Below are positions 3,075 through 29,985 of a stretch of 64,000 nt of DNA, one piece after another. The stretch is from positions 27,993-91,992 of the IMG/VR virus record IMGVR_UViG_3300033073_001448; one strand, written 5' to 3'. Position numbers and translations under genes: made by a program. How positions within the stretch are numbered: position 1 is the first letter of the stretch; the number at the start of each line of letters is the position of its first letter. The DNA comes from a virus (taxonomy: Duplodnaviria; Caudoviricetes). The notes under the pieces were generated by a model. That model did no database searches and was not told where the DNA came from. It worked only from the letters and a program-made list of their open reading frames with translations.

Positions 3075-3137
3075 AGTACGCTCTTTATGTTAATCGTATT
3101 TATATCTACTCACAGAAAACTGCTACTATATAAATTT

Positions 3138-4142
3138 ATGGAATATACTGGTGCGTATCAAGCTCTCAAATCATTTGTTGCTGACCAAGTTGATTTGAAT
3201 TGGTTCCTTGACTGCATACACAATTATAACTTTTTAGAATCCAACAAGTCAACGGCCTATGACTTTTTAAAACAAAATGGTATCCCAATTCCTGAATCAC
3301 AAAAATTCAACGATCTGCAACAACTTCGCAAGCTCTTGCAACAGCCCGTACCTTACGTAGTCAAATTTGATACTGCTATAACTTTGGGTATACAGACCGT
3401 GGTAGTACACACATCCAAAGACGCTATGTCAGTTTTGCTCACAGCAGATAAACTCAAAGTCACAACTGGGCTGGTTCAACGCTTTGTTTCTGGTTATGAA
3501 TTTACTGTAACAGTGCTGGTAGGTGCTCATAATTGGGTGCAAATTGGCACTGCCCAAGACTACAAAAAACAGTTTGAAAATAACCAAGGTGCCAATACAT
3601 TTGGCATGGGCAGTTTGTCACCAGCCCCACATACTCACAGTCAAGCAGACCTTTGGATTAACAACATAGTGCAACTGCTACGCCAGCACCATGATTATCG
3701 GGGATTTTTGAGTTGTCAGTTTATTGCCAACACCAATGGGATTTGGTTATTGGAATATAACACACGGTTCTGCGACCCAGAATTGCAGAGCATGTTAGAA
3801 CTGTTGGACCAATCTTTTGTACAGAGTTTAACACAATGTCAACAGAACAATTTTATGCAGGCACCTGTGATTGATATGTCTAAACGTGCAGTAACCGTCA
3901 GTTTGGTGCACCAAGACTGGCCCAAATACGTCAATGGTCAAACCCTGGATCTTCAATCAGACCAATACCGACTGTGGCGTAACCAACATACCAACTGTGT
4001 GTGGTGGGGTACAGTGACCAATGCTGGAAATCAGTCATACCAACAGTTGGCTGATCAATTGTACCAATGGCTCAGAACACAATCTCTTGGACCATTTAGA
4101 TATCGAACCGACATTGGGAGGGTTTATCCCCAAACTTCGTGA
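3138..4142 (+). CDS. PurD-like ATP-grasp ligase, N-terminally divergent
   Basis: QDYKK, NTFGMGSLSP, LEYNTRFCDPE and C-terminal YRTDIG match GAR synthetase motifs. Confidence 0.75.
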   Translation: MEYTGAYQALKSFVADQVDLNWFLDCIHNYNFLESNKSTAYDFLKQNGIPIPESQKFNDLQQLRKLLQQPVPYVVKFDTAITLGIQTVVVHTSKDAMSVLLTADKLKVTTGLVQRFVSGYEFTVTVLVGAHNWVQIGTAQDYKKQFENNQGANTFGMGSLSPAPHTHSQADLWINNIVQLLRQHHDYRGFLSCQFIANTNGIWLLEYNTRFCDPELQSMLELLDQSFVQSLTQCQQNNFMQAPVIDMSKRAVTVSLVHQDWPKYVNGQTLDLQSDQYRLWRNQHTNCVWWGTVTNAGNQSYQQLADQLYQWLRTQSLGPFRYRTDIGRVYPQTS

Positions 4143-9449: not shown

Positions 9450-10160
9450 ATGAACACTATGATCGCGAATATGAAAGAACTTTCAACCTTTGACGACTTT
9501 GATTGGTTAGACTCTACATCCAAACGGCCGCCACGTGAAATTGCATTTTCGGATGATCCAGTGGCTTTGGCAGTGGCCAGTCATCGACTGTGGATCGAAG
9601 GTGGCCCGCGCTGGTGCGAACTGGACAAAATGAAGCCTACAGATCAAGATCGTACCACTGCACAACAACTGCGCGGTTACTATCGACAGCGCATGGTCAT
9701 GGAAAAACTCAAACAAACCACTGGGGTAGAAACCAGCAGTTTTAGAAAAAAACTGGGACAGTTGGTCACTGATCAACTCTGCATTACCTCAGACGAAGTT
9801 GGTATGCTGATGCGATTGCCGTATTTTTACGCCGAGGATCAAGCAGTGGATCAGGTCATGTCTAATACCGAGTCAGCACAGTTACATCTACGGGGCCAAC
9901 CCTATACCGGTGAGTTCACTTTGGTTCAGCGTGTGTTGCGTAGCCGCCGTAGTGGTGAGTATTATGATTATTGGCTTACTGACGGTGCAAGCCCAACTGC
10001 TCACAGGTTTGTCATGAAAACTGACAATCCTTTGCGTCAATTCATGGAAACTTACATGGATCAAAAATTCCAGGCTCGGGTGTTGATCTACACACAGCCC
10101 ATGCGCGGTTTTTGGCGCGGCCGAAATGTGTATCAGGTGGCGTTCGTTGGGGTAGCATAA
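9450..10160 (+). CDS. hypothetical protein
   Basis: long ORF in operon. Confidence 0.7.
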   Translation: MNTMIANMKELSTFDDFDWLDSTSKRPPREIAFSDDPVALAVASHRLWIEGGPRWCELDKMKPTDQDRTTAQQLRGYYRQRMVMEKLKQTTGVETSSFRKKLGQLVTDQLCITSDEVGMLMRLPYFYAEDQAVDQVMSNTESAQLHLRGQPYTGEFTLVQRVLRSRRSGEYYDYWLTDGASPTAHRFVMKTDNPLRQFMETYMDQKFQARVLIYTQPMRGFWRGRNVYQVAFVGVA

Positions 10161-10378
10161 TGCATCCTGTGGTAGTTCTGCACGTCAACGCTGTGAGAGC
10201 TTTGGAACTACGAGATCAAGTTTTGAGTCATGGATTAATACAAGATCGAGATTTTGTCTGGGAGTACACACAGGCCTCTTATGACAATGATGGGTATACC
10301 GCAGTAACTCCGCGTCAAGTCAAGTTTAAATTTGTGGATCCAGCCATGGCCACATTTTTCAATCTTAAATGGAGGTAA
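10160..10378 (+). CDS. FxLKW-family small protein
   Basis: FKFVDPAMATFFNLKWR*; its W-R codons supply GGAGG upstream of the next gene. Confidence 0.75.
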   Translation: MHPVVVLHVNAVRALELRDQVLSHGLIQDRDFVWEYTQASYDNDGYTAVTPRQVKFKFVDPAMATFFNLKWR

Positions 10379-10385
10379 GTAGAAG

Positions 10386-11186
10386 ATGTCAAAGATACTT
10401 GCTATTTTACTGTTTGTCATGGCTTTTTCAACACAGGCGCATGAAAGCATTTTGGTCTACAACGTATCACAAAATGTTATAGAAATGCAACGCAACGCCG
10501 ATGCTATTCGTCCTATTGCATCAATCACTAAACTTATGACTGCTATCACTACTTTGGACTGGGACAAAGACCTAAGTCGTAAATTGTTATTGAGTGGTCG
10601 AGCCGGTAGCCATTTACCTCGTCAATCTTACAATCGCTATCAACTGTTGATGGCCATGCTGATTCGTTCAGACAATGCTGCCGCTGAAACATTGGCTGAA
10701 GATTATCCCGGCGGACGAGAAGCATTTATTGAGACTATGAATCGCAAAGCCAAAGACTGGGGCATGACTCACACTCATTTTGCCGACGCATCAGGACTCA
10801 GTGCCAGCAATGTTTCAACTGCACGAGATGTTATGAATTTAGTTGAAACTGCTTCGGGTTATTGGCTTATACAAGAAGCAAGCAAGCAGAAACAAATTGC
10901 ACTGGAAACCAAAGCAAAGAAAAAAGTCAGAACTATCGGACTGTCACATACTTCGGGACCGTTATTGTTTGTGTTTGATCAAGTCACTGTGAGCAAGACT
11001 GGACTTACTTCGGCAGCAGGTTGGTGTGTAGGAATGATGGCCCAACAAAACGGGCAGTCGTACATTGTTGTGGTTTTGGGATCCAAAACCAAACAACAAC
11101 GATTTGACACAGTCAAAGACATACGATATAATCATTTCACTGATAAAAATTTATTCGATACACCATTACCTAATAATTATAGATAA
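10386..11186 (+). CDS. peptidase S11 D-Ala-D-Ala carboxy/endopeptidase (PbpG-like)
   Basis: signal peptide; SITK (SxxK), SDN and KTG catalytic motifs. Confidence 0.9.
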   Translation: MSKILAILLFVMAFSTQAHESILVYNVSQNVIEMQRNADAIRPIASITKLMTAITTLDWDKDLSRKLLLSGRAGSHLPRQSYNRYQLLMAMLIRSDNAAAETLAEDYPGGREAFIETMNRKAKDWGMTHTHFADASGLSASNVSTARDVMNLVETASGYWLIQEASKQKQIALETKAKKKVRTIGLSHTSGPLLFVFDQVTVSKTGLTSAAGWCVGMMAQQNGQSYIVVVLGSKTKQQRFDTVKDIRYNHFTDKNLFDTPLPNNYR

Positions 11187-11416
11187 TGCAACTCGAATCA
11201 TATCAGATTAGAGACAAAGAATCCTTTGCTTACGCCAAAGAAATTGCTAAACCTTTTGGTCAATTAGATGTAATTATTGATTGGTGCAGAACGGAACTTT
11301 CTGGTGAGTGGCGCTGGCAGTTGATCCGCACATCCACAGACCGCGAACCTGGCCGCTACATTTTTTACTTTGACTCTGACCGTGATTGCTGTGCGTTTAC
11401 ATTGAAGTGGCAGTAA
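11186..11416 (+). CDS. FxLKW-family small protein
   Basis: DWCRTEL.GEW...FYFDSDRDCCAFTLKWQ*. Confidence 0.75.
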   Translation: MQLESYQIRDKESFAYAKEIAKPFGQLDVIIDWCRTELSGEWRWQLIRTSTDREPGRYIFYFDSDRDCCAFTLKWQ

Positions 11417-19037: not shown

Positions 19038-20501
19038 ATGCACCTAAAATGTCTTGACAACGCAGGTCGAACCGCAGATGTTGTGTTGATCACAACACCT
19101 TGGGTTAACACTAACTTGCCGTTGATGGCCCCTGCTTCTTTGAAGCCTGCCATTGAAATGGCAGGCTATTCTTCTTTTTGTACCGATCTAAATGGTGAGG
19201 TCTATAATCTTCTACAACAGCACCCGTACCGAGAACAGGTGTTGGAATTTTTCTTTGCAGGCACCACGTGTGACAAGATCAAAGATTGGGTTGAAGATTT
19301 TATGAACAGCACTGTAGATCAAATTTTGCAATTTAATCCAAAGTTTGTTGGTCTGAGCTTGTTTACCTATGCGTCACGGAGTGCCTGTTTTTGGATTTGT
19401 GAAAAAATAAAGCAACGTCAGCCCGAGATCAAAATCATAGTTGGCGGCGCTGGTTGCTTGGAGTCTTTCACTGGTCCAGGAATATTTGCTGAAGAAATGA
19501 TAGCTCTAGGGTTGGTAGATTATCATATACGAGGCGATGGTGAACATGCATTGACTCAGTTACTGTTGGGCAACGATCGGTATCCGGGCATCAACAGCCC
19601 AACATGGAAAGAAATTACCAACGAAGAACTACATCAACTTCCTTGGCCTAATTACGACGATTATGATTTTTCGCAATACGAACGCAAAGTAATTGGTATA
19701 CACGGCAGTCGCGGATGTGTGCGAGCTTGTACATTTTGTGACTACATTGAAAATTGGACCAAGTTTCAGTGGCGCACCGCCGAAAGCATATTTGAAGAAA
19801 TGAAAACGCAGTACAAAAAATATGGCATGCGTTACTTTAAATTCAACGATACACTGACCAATGGCAATCTCAAAGAATTCAACAAGTTGATTAAATTATT
19901 GGCCGACCACAACATAGCCAATCCCAACGATCGTTTGCATTGGGGCGGTTACTATATTTTTAGAGAACAGTCAGCCAACGATGACGAAATGTGGAATACT
20001 ATCAAACAATCAGGAGCTTCGTTTTTGGTAGTAGGCATTGAGAATCTCAATGAGGAGATTAGATACCATATTGGCAAAAAGTTCAGCAATGCCAGTATTG
20101 ATTATCATCTTGCCCAGGCCAAAAAACATCGCATAGGCATGCTATTGTTGTTTATTGTGGGCTATGTTACTGAAACTCAGCAACACATTGACTTTAGTAA
20201 AAAGTGGCTAGAGGATCATGTTGAGTTCAAAGATTCTATTCAACTACATTGGGACCAAACCTTGGCTATCTTTCCCAATACGCATTTGCATCGCAACAAA
20301 GACCAGTTAGGCATTAAACTAGGAACCAACCCTCACCTTTGGATCAACATTGAGACTGGGTCCGATCAATCTACCCGCGCTCAATGGATACAAGAGTTAG
20401 TAGACAAAAGTCGAGAGTTAGGCTATAACATCTTAGACAAGGTTGACAATCACTATTATTTAGAGCAGAAATTAAGTGCATTGTCTATGAAAAATCTGTA
20501 A
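19038..20501 (+). CDS. B12-binding radical SAM protein
   Basis: SRGCVRACTFC (CxxxCxxC); N-terminal VGLSLF/IIVGGA/GDGE cobalamin-binding-type domain. Confidence 0.9.
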   Translation: MHLKCLDNAGRTADVVLITTPWVNTNLPLMAPASLKPAIEMAGYSSFCTDLNGEVYNLLQQHPYREQVLEFFFAGTTCDKIKDWVEDFMNSTVDQILQFNPKFVGLSLFTYASRSACFWICEKIKQRQPEIKIIVGGAGCLESFTGPGIFAEEMIALGLVDYHIRGDGEHALTQLLLGNDRYPGINSPTWKEITNEELHQLPWPNYDDYDFSQYERKVIGIHGSRGCVRACTFCDYIENWTKFQWRTAESIFEEMKTQYKKYGMRYFKFNDTLTNGNLKEFNKLIKLLADHNIANPNDRLHWGGYYIFREQSANDDEMWNTIKQSGASFLVVGIENLNEEIRYHIGKKFSNASIDYHLAQAKKHRIGMLLLFIVGYVTETQQHIDFSKKWLEDHVEFKDSIQLHWDQTLAIFPNTHLHRNKDQLGIKLGTNPHLWINIETGSDQSTRAQWIQELVDKSRELGYNILDKVDNHYYLEQKLSALSMKNL

Positions 20502-20647
20502 CACTTTGGTACTACAAAAAATTTACCAAAAGTGGTTGACCATAAAAGGCAGAAGTGTTACAATCTAAACATGTTCGGCAAAAACGAACAAATCGAATCA
20601 AAATTATTGCAAAATTGGTTGACACTAAATCGCAGTTTTGCTATAAT
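20498..20647 (+). promoter_or_regulatory. tandem sigma70 promoters with upstream GTAACAC-N4-GTACTAC
   Basis: TTGACC 20536/TACAAT 20559 and TTGACA 20619/TATAAT 20642, both with 17-nt spacers. Confidence 0.8.
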
Positions 20648-20715
20648 ATTGATATGTTGAGCAGTAAGGCGCAACATTTTTTCAACCCTGTTAGGCAACT
20701 TTGAAAGGCAACTTT

Positions 20716-21072
20716 ATGTCCGCAGACAAACTTTTTACCGTGGCTGGTACCGCTCGCAACTCCGACGGCACCGTTAAGGCCCGTTTCGCTAATGACTTGG
20801 TGGCTCGCATCAAGATCCTCAACAAAGCAGGTTGCACCGATGTTAATCTCATCGAACTGCCCCGTGCTATGACCAAACTGGAAGCTCTCCAGTATCTTAC
20901 CGAGCAAGGTATCACTGAAGGTGATGCCGGTTTTGCTGTGGCCAATAAACTGGCCGAGAAGGCCAAGGTTGCCAAGAAAGGCGAAGTCAAGGTCAAGGCC
21001 ACCAAGGCCAAAGCCAAGACCACCGCTAAGGCCACTATCAAGTCTGATGCTGTTGAAAGCACCAACGCTTAA
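20716..21072 (+). CDS. hypothetical protein with Lys/Ala-rich tail
   Basis: KARFAND...ELPRAMTK; basic C-terminus. Confidence 0.75.
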   Translation: MSADKLFTVAGTARNSDGTVKARFANDLVARIKILNKAGCTDVNLIELPRAMTKLEALQYLTEQGITEGDAGFAVANKLAEKAKVAKKGEVKVKATKAKAKTTAKATIKSDAVESTNA

Positions 21073-21891: not shown

Positions 21892-22390
21892 CCCTTTTAA
21901 AATCGAACCATTAACTCCCGATTCTATTACTATTGGACCGCTTGAGAGTACCACTATTGGTGCTATTGGCAGTGATACAATCAGCACAATAGATCTCAGT
22001 AGCTCAACACTGACCTATTCTAGTAGTCCAAATTACACTATCAACAATAGTGCATTACCAAACAGCATTTGGACTACAACCACTACCGGAACCGGATACA
22101 ATTGGTCTGGTGTAGGTGGAGTCAGCGACGGAACCACCGTAGGTGCTGGAGGCAAGATATCATTAAAGGGACCGGACGCCGACGTTGACATCAACGGCAA
22201 GAGTCTCAAAAACTGGATGGAAAAAGTAGAAGAGCGTTTGAATATTCTTACCCCAAATCCCGAACTTGAAAAAGAGTGGGACGACTTGCGTAAGTTAGGT
22301 GAACGCTATCGTAAACTAGAAAAGAAGTGCAAAGAGAAAGCCGAAGTATGGAAAAAACTCAAAGAGATGCCTCCACCAAAACTGGATTGA
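21857..22390 (+). CDS. conserved phage hypothetical protein
   Basis: Thr/Ser-rich N-terminus; INGKSL...VEERLNILTPNPELEKEW. Confidence 0.75.
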   Translation: MSTIDNKIKLDNPFKIEPLTPDSITIGPLESTTIGAIGSDTISTIDLSSSTLTYSSSPNYTINNSALPNSIWTTTTTGTGYNWSGVGGVSDGTTVGAGGKISLKGPDADVDINGKSLKNWMEKVEERLNILTPNPELEKEWDDLRKLGERYRKLEKKCKEKAEVWKKLKEMPPPKLD

Positions 22391-23202
22391 CTCCCCGGCA
22401 ACGCATCAGCCATATCACAAAGTGGTTGAAGCAGTATGCCCGCAGTGCCAAAATCAACACTTTTGTAGTGGGTATTTCCGGTGGCATTGATTCCTCAGTG
22501 GTCAGTGCGCTGTGCGCCAAGACGGGTATCAAGACCATTGTGGTTCAGATGCCCATTCGTCAAAACAAGACTTTGGACAATCGCAGTTCAATGCAAGCCA
22601 CCTGGCTGCTGAATCAACATCCAGAAACTGTCACCCACATGAGCATGGACTTGACTCCGGTGTTCTCTGCGTTTGAAAAGAAAGTGGATCCTTTCTGCAA
22701 CATCGAAGATGATACTTACGGAACATACAAACTGGCATCTGCTAACTCACGTGCTAGACTGCGAATGATGACCTTGTACCAGATTGCTCAGTGCCACAAC
22801 GGCATTGTTGTGGGCACAGGCAACAAAGTGGAAGACTTTGGCGTGGGCTTTTTTACCAAGTATGGTGATGGTGGCGTGGACATTAGTCCCATTGGCGATT
22901 GCTTGAAAACCGAAGTCTGGGACATGGGCCGTGAACTGGGCCTGGAGCAAGAGATCATTGACGCAGAACCCACTGACGGACTCTGGGACGACGGCCGTAC
23001 AGACGAAGGTCAACTGGGCATGACATATCCTGAACTGGAACGGGCCATGGCCAATGACAAGATTGACCGAGACTGTGTATATGAAACTTTGGAAATCCCA
23101 ATGGACCGAACCGAAAAGGCACAGTTAAAAAAGTATCGTGAGATTCGTGCTCGTAACCTGCACAAAATGCAACCAATTCCTGTGTGCGAAATGCCCAAGT
23201 AA
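22327..23202 (+). CDS. nadE: NH3-dependent NAD+ synthetase
   Basis: GISGGIDS, NSRARLRM, GTGNKVE..VGFFTKYGDG, PT.GLW...TDE; start approximate. Confidence 0.92.
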   Translation: MQRESRSMEKTQRDASTKTGLTPRQRISHITKWLKQYARSAKINTFVVGISGGIDSSVVSALCAKTGIKTIVVQMPIRQNKTLDNRSSMQATWLLNQHPETVTHMSMDLTPVFSAFEKKVDPFCNIEDDTYGTYKLASANSRARLRMMTLYQIAQCHNGIVVGTGNKVEDFGVGFFTKYGDGGVDISPIGDCLKTEVWDMGRELGLEQEIIDAEPTDGLWDDGRTDEGQLGMTYPELERAMANDKIDRDCVYETLEIPMDRTEKAQLKKYREIRARNLHKMQPIPVCEMPK

Positions 23203-23284
23203 ACTACGCCGTTTACTTCAAAACGGCACCTTTTTGGCCCGGTCTTTGGCCGGTTCTTCAACCATCTGAGTAAGTAAAACTACC

Positions 23285-23860
23285 ATGAAAGCACAAGTAA
23301 ACTACATCAGTGATCAACTCACAACTTGGAGTTCACGAGCACTCAAAGCCGCAGGGCTTTGGTTAGTGGTCTTAGCAGTGATTGCTGTTTGCGATCATCG
23401 TCTCGGAGAACTTCGCTCGGGTGTGGAAACCATGCCCCCTGGTTATGTGTCGGCCCAAGAAAAAATCCGTCAATTGGATTGCTTGACTCGTAATATCTAC
23501 TGGGAAGCCGCTTCTGAGCCTTTTGAAGGCAAAGTAGCAGTGGCCCAAGTCACAATGAACAGACTTGCATCTGGACGCTTTGGCGATTCTGTATGTGGAG
23601 TTATCTATCAAAAGAATATTATCTACGAAAAGGTAATTTGCCAATTTTCGTGGGTGTGTGAAACCACACACAAGACCAAACCTGTGTATCAGCCCTTATG
23701 GGCAGAATCAGAACTAGTGGCCAGAAAAGTGTTGTTGGAAAACTTCCGCTTGCCCGGACTCAAAGAAGCACTGTACTATCACGCAGATTATGTAAGCCCG
23801 GGATGGAAAAAACCCCGAATTGATAAAATTGGTCGTCACATTTTTTACGGAGAGCGTTAA
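23285..23860 (+). CDS. cell wall hydrolase (SleB/Hydrolase_2 family), membrane anchored
   Basis: NIYWEAASEPFEGKVAVAQVTMNR, CQFSW, YYHADYV.P.W, IGRHIFY. Confidence 0.9.
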   Translation: MKAQVNYISDQLTTWSSRALKAAGLWLVVLAVIAVCDHRLGELRSGVETMPPGYVSAQEKIRQLDCLTRNIYWEAASEPFEGKVAVAQVTMNRLASGRFGDSVCGVIYQKNIIYEKVICQFSWVCETTHKTKPVYQPLWAESELVARKVLLENFRLPGLKEALYYHADYVSPGWKKPRIDKIGRHIFYGER

Positions 23861-24177: not shown

Positions 24178-24214
24178 GTATTACATTGACCAATAATCCT
24201 ATATTTGCTATAAT
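24178..24214 (+). promoter_or_regulatory. sigma70 promoter (leaderless) with GTATTAC half-site
   Basis: TTGACC 24186, 17 nt, TATAAT 24209; ATG 6 nt downstream. Confidence 0.8.
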
Positions 24215-24220
24215 ATAGGC

Positions 24221-24448
24221 ATGATTACGCAAACAACCAAGACTTACATTTGTCTGCGCCCTGGCGACCCGGACTTTGCATTTTCGCCCAATGGCATCTC
24301 CCTGGTGCCACGTGCAGGTTTTGAAATCAGCAAAAAGTGTCCGGACCATTACAAACAGATTTTAATGGAATGCTTGCGGCATGACTGGATCACGCCTGTG
24401 GCACACATGCGCGACACTGAATATACCATGGAGTTACTTCGAAAATGA
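24221..24448 (+). CDS. hypothetical protein
   Basis: ORF after promoter. Confidence 0.7.
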   Translation: MITQTTKTYICLRPGDPDFAFSPNGISLVPRAGFEISKKCPDHYKQILMECLRHDWITPVAHMRDTEYTMELLRK

Positions 24449-24840
24449 CAATGCATCTTTGTGGCCCTGCCCTGAGTCTCAACGGCAAGAAAAAAGGCAA
24501 AGTCAAGTTCCGCAACGCCGAAGAGGCTCGCAAGGCACGTGAGCTTGCGGCCGACTGGGAGAAACTTAAAACTAAATGGGCTGTGCCCGCAAAGGAGAAA
24601 CGTGTGGGCAAAATTTTTGAACCCTTACACACTGGTGGTTATCGTTTGACTGCGCCGCCCGGTCGCACTACCTCTCGCGACTTGCCCAGCCGTGTCACAG
24701 AAGGCCATTCCACTGCGGCCGTACACAAGGTCTATACCGGCGACAAAGTTCTTGGCATTGCTACCATGCACAAGTCAAATGCTGTGCCTGTATTTGCACA
24801 GGAAGAGGCTGTGGAAATTTCCAAGATGCGTCGTGGCTAA
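24445..24840 (+). CDS. conserved T4-like phage protein
   Basis: YTGDKVLGIATMHKSNAVPVF...ISKMRR. Confidence 0.75.
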   Translation: MTMHLCGPALSLNGKKKGKVKFRNAEEARKARELAADWEKLKTKWAVPAKEKRVGKIFEPLHTGGYRLTAPPGRTTSRDLPSRVTEGHSTAAVHKVYTGDKVLGIATMHKSNAVPVFAQEEAVEISKMRRG

Positions 24841-25045
24841 ACCGCATTTTATTGTGGCTGACCCAGAGATAGCTCGTAGTCTTGGTCAACCTGTGATTGT
24901 GATGTTGAGCGACATTGCATTTTGGAACATAAATTATGATTCATTGCATGAATGGTGTCGGCAAAATCACAGTGAAGTGCAAGGTATGACTGTGAATATC
25001 CCCGACGATGTCACACTCACTGCATTTTGTTTGAGGTGGGCATGA
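24833..25045 (+). CDS. FxLRW-family small protein
   Basis: EWCRQN...TAFCLRWA*. Confidence 0.75.
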   Translation: MAKPHFIVADPEIARSLGQPVIVMLSDIAFWNINYDSLHEWCRQNHSEVQGMTVNIPDDVTLTAFCLRWA

Positions 25046-25278
25046 TCGAAATTACATTGAACAATCAACTCTGTGATCGAGTGCTATATTATGAAACTGG
25101 ATTCGAACAACTGCATCCTTTGCCTGAAATTCATTGCTGGATGGATCAGCGTGGCCAAACCTACCAACAAGATTGGCATGTCAAGCGTGTAAACCACACC
25201 ATGTATCAACGCAGTCATTACATGTTGGTTATCAACAACGACCAAATAGCAACTGAATTTGTACTACGCTGGCTATGA
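25042..25278 (+). CDS. FxLRW-family small protein
   Basis: CWMDQRG...ATEFVLRWL*. Confidence 0.75.
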   Translation: MIEITLNNQLCDRVLYYETGFEQLHPLPEIHCWMDQRGQTYQQDWHVKRVNHTMYQRSHYMLVINNDQIATEFVLRWL

Positions 25279-25493
25279 TAAAATATCACTATCCCTGGCC
25301 TGAGCAGGCACCTACACTAAAGGTTCCAGTGTTACACCGTGTGAACTTTTCGGGTTATCGTTTTGCAGAAATGCGTGAGTGGTTGGAAGCCAACTGTAGG
25401 GCACCATACTACACCAGTCCAGGATGGACCGGCAACTTTGTTGAGTTTGAAGACGACCAGGATGCCACTGCATTTGCACTGAGGTGGTCATGA
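25275..25493 (+). CDS. FxLRW-family small protein
   Basis: EWLEANC...VEFEDDQDATAFALRWS*. Confidence 0.8.
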   Translation: MIKYHYPWPEQAPTLKVPVLHRVNFSGYRFAEMREWLEANCRAPYYTSPGWTGNFVEFEDDQDATAFALRWS

Positions 25494-25714
25494 TCTTAGC
25501 CACAGTCAAACTGTATCATCCGAAACAACAAAATCGTTGGGTTGACGAAAGCCCTATCAATGTGTGGCTGTTGGCCAATGTTGGTGTTCATGCCCGCTAT
25601 AGAGATTTAGTAGACGAATCAAGACCGTGGCATGTGGATCATGAAAGAGATTATCTTGTGTATCACTTTGCTCGTGAGCGCGATGCCACAGCGTTTGCAC
25701 TGAAGTTTGCATGA
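25490..25714 (+). CDS. FxLRW-family small protein
   Basis: WLLANVG...YHFARERDATAFALKFA*. Confidence 0.8.
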   Translation: MILATVKLYHPKQQNRWVDESPINVWLLANVGVHARYRDLVDESRPWHVDHERDYLVYHFARERDATAFALKFA

Positions 25715-25932
25715 ATCCACTGTTGGTTCACGAAGTTGTAATCTACAACGATGATTGGTACAAGGCAGAAGCTTGGTGCGAGCAAAACATTGGGCAATTT
25801 AATATCACATGGTATAAACTTGGTATTGATCCGTTGGAGATGATGATGCGTTCCCCAGGAGCCAAAACCAAGACAGTTTGGTATTTCCTCCGCGAACAAG
25901 ACGCAACAATGTTTAAACTAAAATGGACGTGA
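25711..25932 (+). CDS. FxLKW-family small protein
   Basis: AWCEQNIG...WYFLREQDATMFKLKWT*. Confidence 0.8.
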   Translation: MNPLLVHEVVIYNDDWYKAEAWCEQNIGQFNITWYKLGIDPLEMMMRSPGAKTKTVWYFLREQDATMFKLKWT

Positions 25933-26144
25933 TGGGTACCAAAACATTTGCTGAAAAGGGCAGAGTTCGACTGGTGGGTGACGAAAGAGATGTCGCTGTG
26001 GTTTCAAACTATCGCGAAGATGTATGGGCATGGTGCGATGCCAACAACATCGAGGTGGAATATCAAGGAACTTTGGCCAAAGTAGATCTCTGGCGTATTC
26101 GCAATGAGCAACAACGTGTGGCATTTTTATTAAAATGGAGTTAG
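25932..26144 (+). CDS. FxLKW-family small protein
   Basis: AWCDANN...VAFLLKWS*. Confidence 0.75.
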   Translation: MGTKTFAEKGRVRLVGDERDVAVVSNYREDVWAWCDANNIEVEYQGTLAKVDLWRIRNEQQRVAFLLKWS

Positions 26145-26386
26145 ATATCAGCGAAGGCTCAGTGTATGGTGCAAGGTACTATACTGTGCGCCCAATGTTT
26201 CCAGCACATGCGCCAACTTGGTTTAGGCAAGAATGGGATGATATGCTACAATGGTGTGTTAGTACATTCGGTCCCACACCTGAAGATGGTGTATGGACAC
26301 CTGGTGCTCGCTGGTATGTCAACAATTCTAAGTTTTGGTTTCGAAATGAGCAAGATCGCTCTTGGTTTGTATTAAGGTGGACATGA
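26135..26386 (+). CDS. FxLRW-family small protein
   Basis: QWCVSTFG...FWFRNEQDRSWFVLRWT*. Confidence 0.8.
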   Translation: MELDISEGSVYGARYYTVRPMFPAHAPTWFRQEWDDMLQWCVSTFGPTPEDGVWTPGARWYVNNSKFWFRNEQDRSWFVLRWT

Positions 26387-26631
26387 TGCCGGAACGATTT
26401 TGTGTACCGATTACCTATGGCAACTTTGGTGAAAAGTGGCCCACATACTTTGAAAACTTTTTTCGACATTGCAATGAAATAGCCGAAGCCAATGGCTGGA
26501 TGCCTATTACCGTGATGAACCATCAACTAAAACCCTATGGAGGCAAACTGATTATGACCAAAACACAAGGATGGTATCTGCGATGGGACACCGAATCTGC
26601 ACAAACGGCGTTTGTACTGAAATGGAATTAA
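26383..26631 (+). CDS. FxLKW-family small protein
   Basis: LRWDTESAQTAFVLKWN*. Confidence 0.75.
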   Translation: MMPERFCVPITYGNFGEKWPTYFENFFRHCNEIAEANGWMPITVMNHQLKPYGGKLIMTKTQGWYLRWDTESAQTAFVLKWN

Positions 26632-26633
26632 TT

Positions 26634-26930
26634 ATGTCAGGATTTCAATCAAAGCGCATGATAACAACCCATGGACGAGGAATGGGCAAATCAGTTTGGG
26701 CCAATATGATTAGAGAACTAACAATGCCAGATGTAAAAGTTTTGGACAGTGCCGACGTTGACGGAAAAACATGGTATACAGTACAATTGAGTATGCCTGC
26801 CAGGGAGTGGCTACGGGAACAACCTACAGAAGATTGGCATGAGCACATTGATCAACGATATTACGTAAATCAAAGTATGTTTGACATAAGTGAACAGATG
26901 TATTCAGCACTGACATTAAAATGGAGTTGA
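26634..26930 (+). CDS. LKW-family small protein with N-terminal GRGMGKS
   Basis: EWLREQ...YSALTLKWS*. Confidence 0.7.
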   Translation: MSGFQSKRMITTHGRGMGKSVWANMIRELTMPDVKVLDSADVDGKTWYTVQLSMPAREWLREQPTEDWHEHIDQRYYVNQSMFDISEQMYSALTLKWS

Positions 26931-27298
26931 ATACACCTTTCAAAATTAGGGACCTGCCCGACAATTCATGGTCAGTGAGTTGGCCCGGCTATGAATATGT
27001 TTTGGTCAACAACATTGTCAAGGCACAGAATTTACTTGAAATTTTATTTGACAAACTCAAAATCAATGAAGTAGAGTTAGCTCTGCGTAGAGAAGGTTGG
27101 AGTGAAGATAAAACCGAAATCATGCACGTCAATGTGTCTGCCTGGTGGCAAGATAAAGTCGGTTTGGCAAAGTATCTCACTGATTTTATTGTTGTAGGAA
27201 TAAAGTTTAGAGATCTTGCTAAAGCAGAACAATTCAAAGACATTATGGACAAGCGACTAATGTGGTCCAGACTCAGCGGCGGAAAAAAGTGGAAATGA
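26921..27298 (+). CDS. hypothetical protein
   Basis: starts within the K-W codons of the upstream gene. Confidence 0.65.
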   Translation: MELNTPFKIRDLPDNSWSVSWPGYEYVLVNNIVKAQNLLEILFDKLKINEVELALRREGWSEDKTEIMHVNVSAWWQDKVGLAKYLTDFIVVGIKFRDLAKAEQFKDIMDKRLMWSRLSGGKKWK

Positions 27299-29204: not shown

Positions 29205-29423
29205 ATGGCTAAAGAAGAAGGTTTAAAAATGGACGGTGTTGTGGTAGATGTACTGCCCAACGCTATGTTTAAAGTCAAAATTGCAAATACAGAATCTGTG
29301 ATCACAGGCATAATTTCAGGACGCATGAGACAGCACAACATCAAAATTTTACTGGGAGATACTGTGGAAGTAGAATTCAGTCCATATGACCTCACCCGCG
29401 GACGTATCACACGTCGCCGCTAA
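29205..29423 (+). CDS. infA: translation initiation factor IF-1
   Basis: MAKEE..MDGVV..VLPNAMF.V...ISGRMR...I.IL.GD.V.VE.SPYDLTRGRI. Confidence 0.95.
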   Translation: MAKEEGLKMDGVVVDVLPNAMFKVKIANTESVITGIISGRMRQHNIKILLGDTVEVEFSPYDLTRGRITRRR

Positions 29424-29433
29424 ATATCAAGTT

Positions 29434-29985
29434 ATGACAACAATTCGCGACACCATCAACATTGTTGAAGCCAGTACAAAACCAGCAAAACTGGAAACCA
29501 CTCCCTTGCCTTACAGTGAAAAAGACCTTGAACCTGTAATGAGCCGGGCTACCATTGACTATCACTACGAGCATTTGGCCAAAGGCTATGCAAAACGCTA
29601 CAACGCAGGAGAAGGTAATGCGAATTTTAATCGTGCTGGCAATTTTTTACACAATCAGTTCTTCACTCAGTTTAGGGCTCCTAAGGGCGCCAATCGTCCC
29701 CGTGGCCCAGTACTTGAACTAATCGAAGAGCATTTCAAGACCTGGGAAGATTTCAAAGAAGCCTTCAAAGAAACTGCAATGAAGATACAAGGATCAGGCT
29801 GGGTTTACTTGAGCACTGGTGGAGACATCAAGACCATTGCCAATCATGCTGTACGCACTGACATCTGTGTGTTGGTAGACTGGTGGGAGCATGCCTGGGC
29901 CCTGGACTATCAAAGCGACAAAGAAGGTTATCTAGACAACATCTGGAAAATCATCAACTGGGACATTTGCAACGCAAGACTATGA
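29434..29985 (+). CDS. sod: Fe/Mn superoxide dismutase with N-terminal extension
   Basis: [37 protein letters not shown]. Confidence 0.9.

Follow-up and report, generated by a model that had tools for sequence, protein, structure and literature searches.

Within a 64,000-nucleotide stretch of DNA from a giant, uncultured T4-like phage (hereafter the window), which is part of a 91,992-bp IMG/VR virus record (IMGVR_UViG_3300033073_001448) with a completeness estimate of 27%, nine small adjoining genes form a tandem array on the + strand (positions 24833-26930), each ending with the same short motif, [FL]-x-L-[RK]-[WF]-x-stop, as established from the list of open reading frames (ORFs) and by codon reading. 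We found that these genes are true paralogs, homologous along their bodies and beyond the tail motif, and that they belong to a large, uncharacterised family restricted to viruses, here termed the LRW-tail family. The F-x-L-[RK]-W tail is predicted to form the last turns of a C-terminal helix, belonging to the fold rather than constituting a free peptide, and, at the level of the DNA, the same last four codons were shown to serve both the protein and the putative start of the next gene.

The original prediction had listed nine consecutive ORFs with these tails, all of which were present, and six additional members elsewhere in the window (3' ends at 1334, 1552, 1803, 2027, 10378 and 11416), which were found as well, together with a 16th member located upstream of the window (genome positions 20638-20880). 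Fifteen ORFs ending with L[RK]Wx were observed, all on the + strand, compared to 0.2 expected among the 1032 ORFs of 40 amino acids (aa) or more in all six frames, with the member ending with LKFA being an extra one. The array had been proposed to extend to position 27298, but its members stop at 26930, the rest being a 125-aa ORF that is not a detectable member of the family. The members, and the gene that follows them, are as follows (E-values are of leave-one-out profiles, unless noted otherwise):

B1, 24833-25045, + strand: 70 aa, uncertain GTG start, tail TAFCLRWA, E 4e-3
B2, 25042-25278, + strand: 78 aa, tail TEFVLRWL, E 7e-5
B3, 25275-25493, + strand: 72 aa, tail TAFALRWS, E 3e-9, ortholog at 59% identity
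B4, 25490-25714, + strand: 74 aa, tail TAFALKFA (Phe replaces Trp), E 9e-7, ortholog at 53% identity
B5, 25711-25932, + strand: 73 aa, tail TMFKLKWT, E 4e-11
B6, 25923-26144, + strand: 73 aa, tail VAFLLKWS, E 9e-5
B7, 26135-26386, + strand: 83 aa, tail SWFVLRWT, E 8e-29 with an external hidden Markov model (HMM)
B8, 26383-26631, + strand: 82 aa, tail TAFVLKWN, divergent
B9, 26622-26930, + strand: 102 aa (98 aa from ATG 26634), tail SALTLKWS, E 6e-4, ortholog at 50% identity
A1, 1188 (or 1092)-1334, + strand: opens the four-member first array (1188-2027)
A2, 1331-1552, + strand: first array
A3, 1549-1803, + strand: first array
A4, 1800-2027, + strand: first array
S1, 10160-10378, + strand: solitary member, 72 aa, tail FFNLKWR, E 5e-3
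S2, 11186-11416, + strand: solitary member, 76 aa, tail AFTLKWQ, codons AAG TGG CAG TAA
125-aa gene after B9, 26921-27298, + strand: starts with the ATG within the AAA-TGG of B9

The start of A1 is ambiguous, as ATG 1188 gives a 48-aa protein with no overlap and without the N-terminal strands described below, and the alternative GTG 1092 gives an 80-aa protein overlapping the conserved gene ahead of it, the last position of which is 1177; relatives of the A1 subfamily are mostly 60-66 aa long. The 125-aa ORF was considered as a tenth member of the nine-gene array and rejected, since neither the leave-one-out nor the external HMMs recognised it. Its homologues adjoin arrays in 17 loci. By eye, this protein harbors F-R-D and then an F nine residues on, recalling the last strand and helix of the family.

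According to the original prediction, the paralogs share only their C-terminal motif and cannot be aligned by eye outside of it. In profile alignments this did not hold: the 15 window proteins are merely 16-32% identical to the first one, yet they are alignable, their central helix bearing a near-invariant Trp and their tails the F, L and W. The W-[CL] helix noticed earlier inside the proteins is real, its W being at least 90% conserved in A1, and the signature of the family reads W-C-x3-F-G, R-W-Y, F-x-F-[RK]-x-E-x-D-x3-F-x-L-[RK]-W. Conservation spans ~75 residues, and the invariant Trp, Cys and Phe lie far from the joint between genes. Leave-one-out profiles recovered 15 of the 16 members of this genome (E 4e-11 to 5e-3, B8 alone being missed) and no other ORF of the genome at E <= 10, while an external profile built from metagenome proteins only recovered 12 of the 16 (missing B2, B8, B9 and S1) with no false match. 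Tryptophan makes up 6.6% of family residues, compared to 1.5% in long ORFs. B8 has a strongly conserved subfamily of its own and is a probable member of the family. The isoelectric points (pI) of the members range from 5.0 to 10.7, and so the ideas of a DNA mimic and of a family of uniformly acidic inhibitors were rejected.

A profile of the 15 window members matched 1123 cluster representatives (clusters at 50% identity) at E <= 0.001 in a search of 1.84 billion proteins, in line with the earlier proposal of a single family with a common small domain. Among the 150 matches listed, all but one are 54-144 aa long and nearly all alignments reach the last residue; longer fused forms of 234-2000 aa were looked for and not found, which is weak evidence. 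That the family is not a characterised one, as had also been proposed, was borne out by searches of Pfam, PHROGs, NCBIfam and PADLOC with window members and consensus-like relatives, none of which gave a match, including to known immunity, anti-defence or defence families (Pfam Imm/SUKH, PADLOC, NCBIfam, PHROGs), and by a profile search of PDB sequences, which returned nothing significant (best E 0.37). No match to cultured phages was obtained by megablast of the array, nor by tblastn of three subfamilies against 50,697 cultured-phage records, and the B7 subfamily was not found in 185,579 prokaryote genomes (a weak negative, as one narrow pattern was used). Neighbours in the ESM Atlas are hypothetical, virus-only clusters, and a literature search found no description of the LRW-tail family.

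To characterize the fold, we ran AlphaFold2 on the family alignment, with the modelled protein (A1) begun at GTG 1092, though its real start may be ATG 1188. The model scored a predicted local distance difference test (pLDDT) value of 78.5 overall and 83-93 over residues 31-80, and presented a small alpha/beta domain in the order strand, strand, helix, strand, strand, helix. The predicted helix 69-79 contains the motif, and residues 71-80 are the best-scored block of the model (mean pLDDT 92). The fold would consist of a core of helix, beta-hairpin and C-terminal helix, which in most members one or two preceding strands at the N-terminus would complete to a two-layer sandwich (beta-beta-alpha-beta-beta-alpha). 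Many proteins of 'uncultured Caudovirales phage' with a similar fold were found in BFVD, while Foldseek gave no match against the PDB at E <= 0.001. In VIA-align (48,161 chains) the best Z was 5.5, a background-level match to the PCD/DCoH-like fold (4low, 2ebb, 1uso), which has the same order of elements and accounts for four of the nine best rows; however, these superpositions (root-mean-square deviation 2.5-2.9 A, 64-67 residues aligned) reach a Z of only 5.0-5.5, below the usual best of unrelated models, and there is no sequence similarity.

We then surveyed the tails at the codon level in 267 unique members, the relatives being drawn from 80 IMG/VR loci. No other part of the protein is as conserved as the tail (F 100%, L 97%, R/K 98%, W 96%), and the Trp position is penultimate in 196 of 226 relatives with a strict L[RK][WF] tail, in 124 of 149 among the representatives listed and in 16 of 16 members of this genome, with ~13-17% of relatives running 2-8 residues beyond it. 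The tail pattern xTG-AGG-TGG-xxA-TGA contains a Shine-Dalgarno-like GAGGTGG, followed by five bases and the next ATG, which overlaps the TGA; all four tails of A1-A4 read xTG AGG TGG xCA TGA. Among the 15 window members, AGG encodes seven of the eight tail Arg residues and an ATGA overlap ends nine tails. Among relatives the tail Arg is AGG in 113 of 176 cases, and in 102 of 154 of the strict LRW-x subset (64-66%), compared to a background of 6.9% of Arg codons in long ORFs and 8.3% inside the bodies of the family, and 101 of the 102 AGG tails have the next start at -4, -1 or close by. Where the Lys variants read AAA TGG, the next gene has its ATG within these codons, and AGA and CGA tails likewise place an ATG at -10 relative to the stop. 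Overall, next-gene starts are found at -4 (ATGA/GTGA), -1 (TAATG) or -10 relative to the stop, positions that share one frame, and therefore each gene steps back one frame from its predecessor. A stop/start overlap with a Shine-Dalgarno sequence 5-9 nucleotides (nt) ahead of the start is present at nearly every joint.

Within the nine-gene array, the starts of B2 and B4 are ATGA overlaps following the GAGGTGG of B1 and B3, respectively, and those of B6 and B7 are the ATGs within the AAA-TGG of B5 and B6 (B6 has an alternative ATG at 25932). The B7 start is supported by a metagenome homologue (P0024) that begins at the same position. At the solitary S1, the end TGG-AGG-TAA gives GGAGG 7 nt ahead of the next ATG. 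The longest chain seen, ~22 family genes in a row, is on an ENA metagenome contig (L083:1482-8338), where nearly all joints are TTGAGGTGGTCATGA or a TAATG variant. These joints resemble those of ordinary translationally coupled overlapping genes, with a stop/start overlap and a Shine-Dalgarno-like sequence 5 nt before the ATG, but here the signal is carried by a family peptide, Leu-Arg-Trp-x, repeated joint after joint in chains as long as ~22 genes, and in two interchangeable encodings, AGG-TGG as the Shine-Dalgarno sequence or NNA-TGG as the start.

On this evidence from codon choice, the invariance of the tail is largely attributable to apparent RNA-level selection for the next Shine-Dalgarno sequence and start, and not to the protein level alone. 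This RNA signal accounts for the choice of codons, for the last residue (usually Ser, Ala or Thr, from xCA) and for much of the fixed spacing between motif and stop. It is not the sole cause, since LKW tails and tails with five different Leu codons still keep the peptide, since uncoupled members do so too (S2 keeps its tail although it lacks a coupled downstream start), since the peptide is kept in relatives with the 2-8 extra residues, and since F, L and W follow the same pattern as the remaining invariant aromatic positions in the domain. The original prediction had named a DNA-level artefact as the outcome that would overturn it; of this, the part concerning codons and the fixed end stood, as the RNA signal explains both, and the part concerning the peptide did not, as it is kept where that signal is missing.

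The paralogs were further compared to their relatives in other viral contigs. Best matches there are 27-69% identical, 14 of the 16 paralogs having one at E 4e-14 to 1e-45, while the closest full-length paralog within this genome is only 22-35% identical. B1 has its best match at 49% identity over 49 aa, no clear ortholog of B2 was found in the sampled loci, and B7 represents the most widespread subfamily (281 IMG/VR loci; metagenome proteins 45-59% identical). The median ratio of nonsynonymous to synonymous substitution rates (dN/dS) was 0.14 over 361 ortholog pairs with the last five codons excluded, and purifying selection on the protein bodies is shown, as estimated from codon substitutions. 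Since orthologs elsewhere are closer than paralogs at home and dN/dS is ~0.14, the paralogs are old and individually conserved rather than hypervariable, contrary to the hypervariable surfaces that had been proposed.

The earlier view of a repertoire that varies among relatives fared better. Four complete relatives of 347-364 kb, all encoding a T4-type Gp23 capsid protein and two having terminal repeats, carry 3, 19, 24 and 13 copies, and array order and content vary between phages (for example, X0-B1-?-B3-B7-B9 in locus L038), with many subfamilies that are not in this genome and with unrelated small genes interleaved among the array genes. The closest syntenic relative, L067, shares with the window the SleB-like gene, orf104, orf131 and the superoxide dismutase (SOD) gene, and has three members against the nine of the window. 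Copy number thus varies at syntenic loci, and therefore the arrays are accessory genes. Between the short array of L067 and its SOD gene there is also a 74-aa ORF (L067:10900-11124) that, by eye, resembles translation initiation factor IF-1.

Upstream of B1 we located the following features:

sigma-70-type promoter-like site, 24186-24214, + strand: TTGACC-17-(TG)TATAAT, 11 of 12 matches, extended -10 TG
first non-family operon-opening gene, 24221-24448, + strand: 75 aa
second non-family operon-opening gene (orf131), 24445-24840, + strand: 131 aa, overlapping both the first and B1

The site agrees with the promoter previously suggested at 24186, as a near-consensus sequence match. The ATG at 24221 lies just 6 nt after the -10 hexamer, and so the first gene is probably leaderless; the first transcript would thus probably be leaderless, whereas the downstream genes depend on coupled starts led by a Shine-Dalgarno sequence. 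Neither opening gene has a Pfam match, and a homologue of orf131 occupies the corresponding position in L067 and six other loci. Internal promoter-like sites score 9-10 of 12 (13 in the whole region, compared to 7.6 +/- 2.6 in shuffles), no terminator-like site was found on the + strand within 24833-26930, and further small uncharacterised genes, all overlapping, continue after the nine paralogs.

Taken together, the explanation we favour, with somewhat better than even confidence, is that these are old paralogs with a fold-embedded, dual-coded tail, expressed early as a coupled chain, and acting as non-enzymatic binders with subfamily-specific targets. Because each tail carries the Shine-Dalgarno sequence or the start of the next gene, the whole array would be read as one translationally coupled chain from the host-type promoter at 24186. 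Its products would be early, non-enzymatic binding modules, a reading for which we counted the lack of a match to any enzyme or other named family (Pfam, NCBIfam, PADLOC), and each subfamily may have its own host or phage target, serving host takeover or counter-defence. Whole genes would be gained, lost and reshuffled among related T4-like phages of ~350 kb.

Several observations count against this explanation. The first 20 residues of the model are poorly predicted and the start of the protein is uncertain, so that the secure core is the helix, hairpin and helix; the N-terminal strands rest on their conservation in other subfamilies. B8 was missed by both the leave-one-out and the external HMMs, its alignment to the B7 subfamily by hhalign has a probability of 22% and covers the last 29 columns only, and its model (pLDDT 68) shows no C-terminal helix. 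The ortholog pairs used for dN/dS come mostly from the B7 subfamily, the promoter is a consensus match only, the conserved Cys, Glu, Asp and Arg/Lys residues could form a site, and the function we propose is wholly inferred.

Other explanations were weighed against the same evidence. The original prediction regarded the tail as an invariant docking peptide that plugs all paralogs into one shared phage or host partner, making the array an adaptor or effector library. It would fit the fact that conservation along the protein is highest in the tail, which uncoupled members keep as well, that 83-87% of relatives end exactly one residue past the Trp, and that coupled translation would yield similar amounts of every paralog. 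We nevertheless consider it unlikely, as the tail is predicted to be an ordered helix and scores best of all blocks of the model, and as the residues conserved in it are, similarly to the rest of the invariant core, mostly hydrophobic (aromatic or aliphatic). In addition, 13-17% of relatives continue for 2-8 residues beyond the Trp, the Shine-Dalgarno sequence and start of the next gene account for both the fixed end and the choice of Arg codon, and the arrays have no conserved partner gene, the flanking genes differing between loci. We assign a similarly low probability to the C-terminal helix being a common interface, either to one shared partner or between paralogs, in a combinatorial adaptor library with ratios fixed by the joints; if true, hundreds of uncultured giant phages would possess a modular effector system of a new type. 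That the paralogs are subunits of one hetero-oligomeric assembly, whose stoichiometry is set by translational coupling, seems very unlikely: while the genes do form coupled chains, the C-terminal helix has more than one hydrophobic face and the nearest topologies, the PCD/DCoH-like ones, are oligomeric (a weak point, at Z 5.5), these structural matches are at background level, complete relatives carry between 3 and 24 copies with differing subfamilies and orders, and S1 and S2 are solitary.

The motif might also be a DNA-level joint only, with unrelated small genes sharing a recombination and translation cassette and no common fold. RNA-level selection on the joint is clear, B8 shares just its last ~30 residues (with low confidence) and the same regions also contain interspersed small genes that are unrelated, but the ~75-residue conservation together with the recovery of 15 of 16 members by leave-one-out profiles, the purifying selection that persists with the tail excluded, and the LKW tails that keep the peptide despite quite different DNA make this highly improbable. 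We regard as scarcely probable, too, that the proteins are internal proteins, packaged in the capsid and injected along with the DNA. In the T-even internal-protein locus, variable small dissimilar proteins share a short, cleaved N-terminal peptide with a proven capsid-targeting role, and the arrays resemble this locus in bearing one short terminal peptide on divergent small proteins and in a set that varies between relatives; moreover, the relatives are T4-like and encode Gp23 as their major capsid protein, and a few members have an N-terminal segment resembling the gp23 N-arm. However, the peptide of the arrays is C-terminal and inside a predicted helix, on proteins homologous along their length, no common N-terminal capsid-targeting sequence was observed in the 15 aligned window members, nor did these share an N-terminal targeting peptide ending in a prohead-protease site, the host-type promoter ahead of the genes suggests early expression, and the gp23-like segment is a minority feature (13% of one Atlas cluster). 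It is represented by two neighbouring proteins of 143-144 aa, P0154 (L083:6001-6435) and P0022 (L083:6432-6863); the N-terminal ~70 residues of P0154 align to residues 83-128 of T4 gp23 (the mature N-arm; E 0.008 against PDB chains), and P0022 has a Pfam Gp23 match (E 9e-7). As judged from these alignments, the segment may be a capsid fragment that was captured, or else may mark a variant directed to the capsid.

Returning to the coupled chain of old paralogs that we favour, two additional known systems bear resemblance to it. The hyperplastic regions of T4-type phages contain promoter-early stem-loop (PeSL) cassettes, which are intergenic promoter and terminator units (Arbiol et al. 2010, PMC2839356; Comeau et al. 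2014, PMC4122927), and these regions are reportedly likewise composed of small, non-essential, mostly uncharacterised early genes, shuffled among relatives at short conserved intergenic sequences. In contrast, the arrays described here have no intergenic space or internal terminator, one strong promoter lies upstream and the conserved joint is coding; the intergenic sigma-70 promoter and stem-loop terminator that separate shuffled PeSL genes were not found between the genes of the array. Poly-immunity loci of polymorphic toxin systems (Zhang et al. 2011, PMC3113570) are tandem arrays of divergent immunity proteins of the SUKH/Imm type, and are similar in consisting of tandem, divergent, small non-enzymatic paralogs whose composition varies between genomes. 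They differ from the LRW-tail arrays in that the latter have no Pfam match, including to Imm/SUKH models, are virus-only and have no toxin genes nearby.

With more than 1100 clusters at 50% identity and up to 24 copies per genome, the family constitutes a sizeable portion of viral dark matter, and its clean signature and confident model provide a starting point for work on it, with the accessory arrays being reasonable candidates for host-takeover or counter-defence screens. It also calls for caution, as selection on the ribosome-binding site and start of a next gene can hold an 'invariant peptide' at the end of a gene, and docking-peptide or degron guesses made from motifs should be checked against codon usage.

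Auxiliary genes lie near the arrays at the following positions, their products being an NAD synthase, a SleB-like cell-wall hydrolase, an Fe/Mn superoxide dismutase, a B12-binding radical SAM protein and an ATP-grasp (GARS-like) protein:

22327-23860
29386-29985
19038-20501
3087-4142

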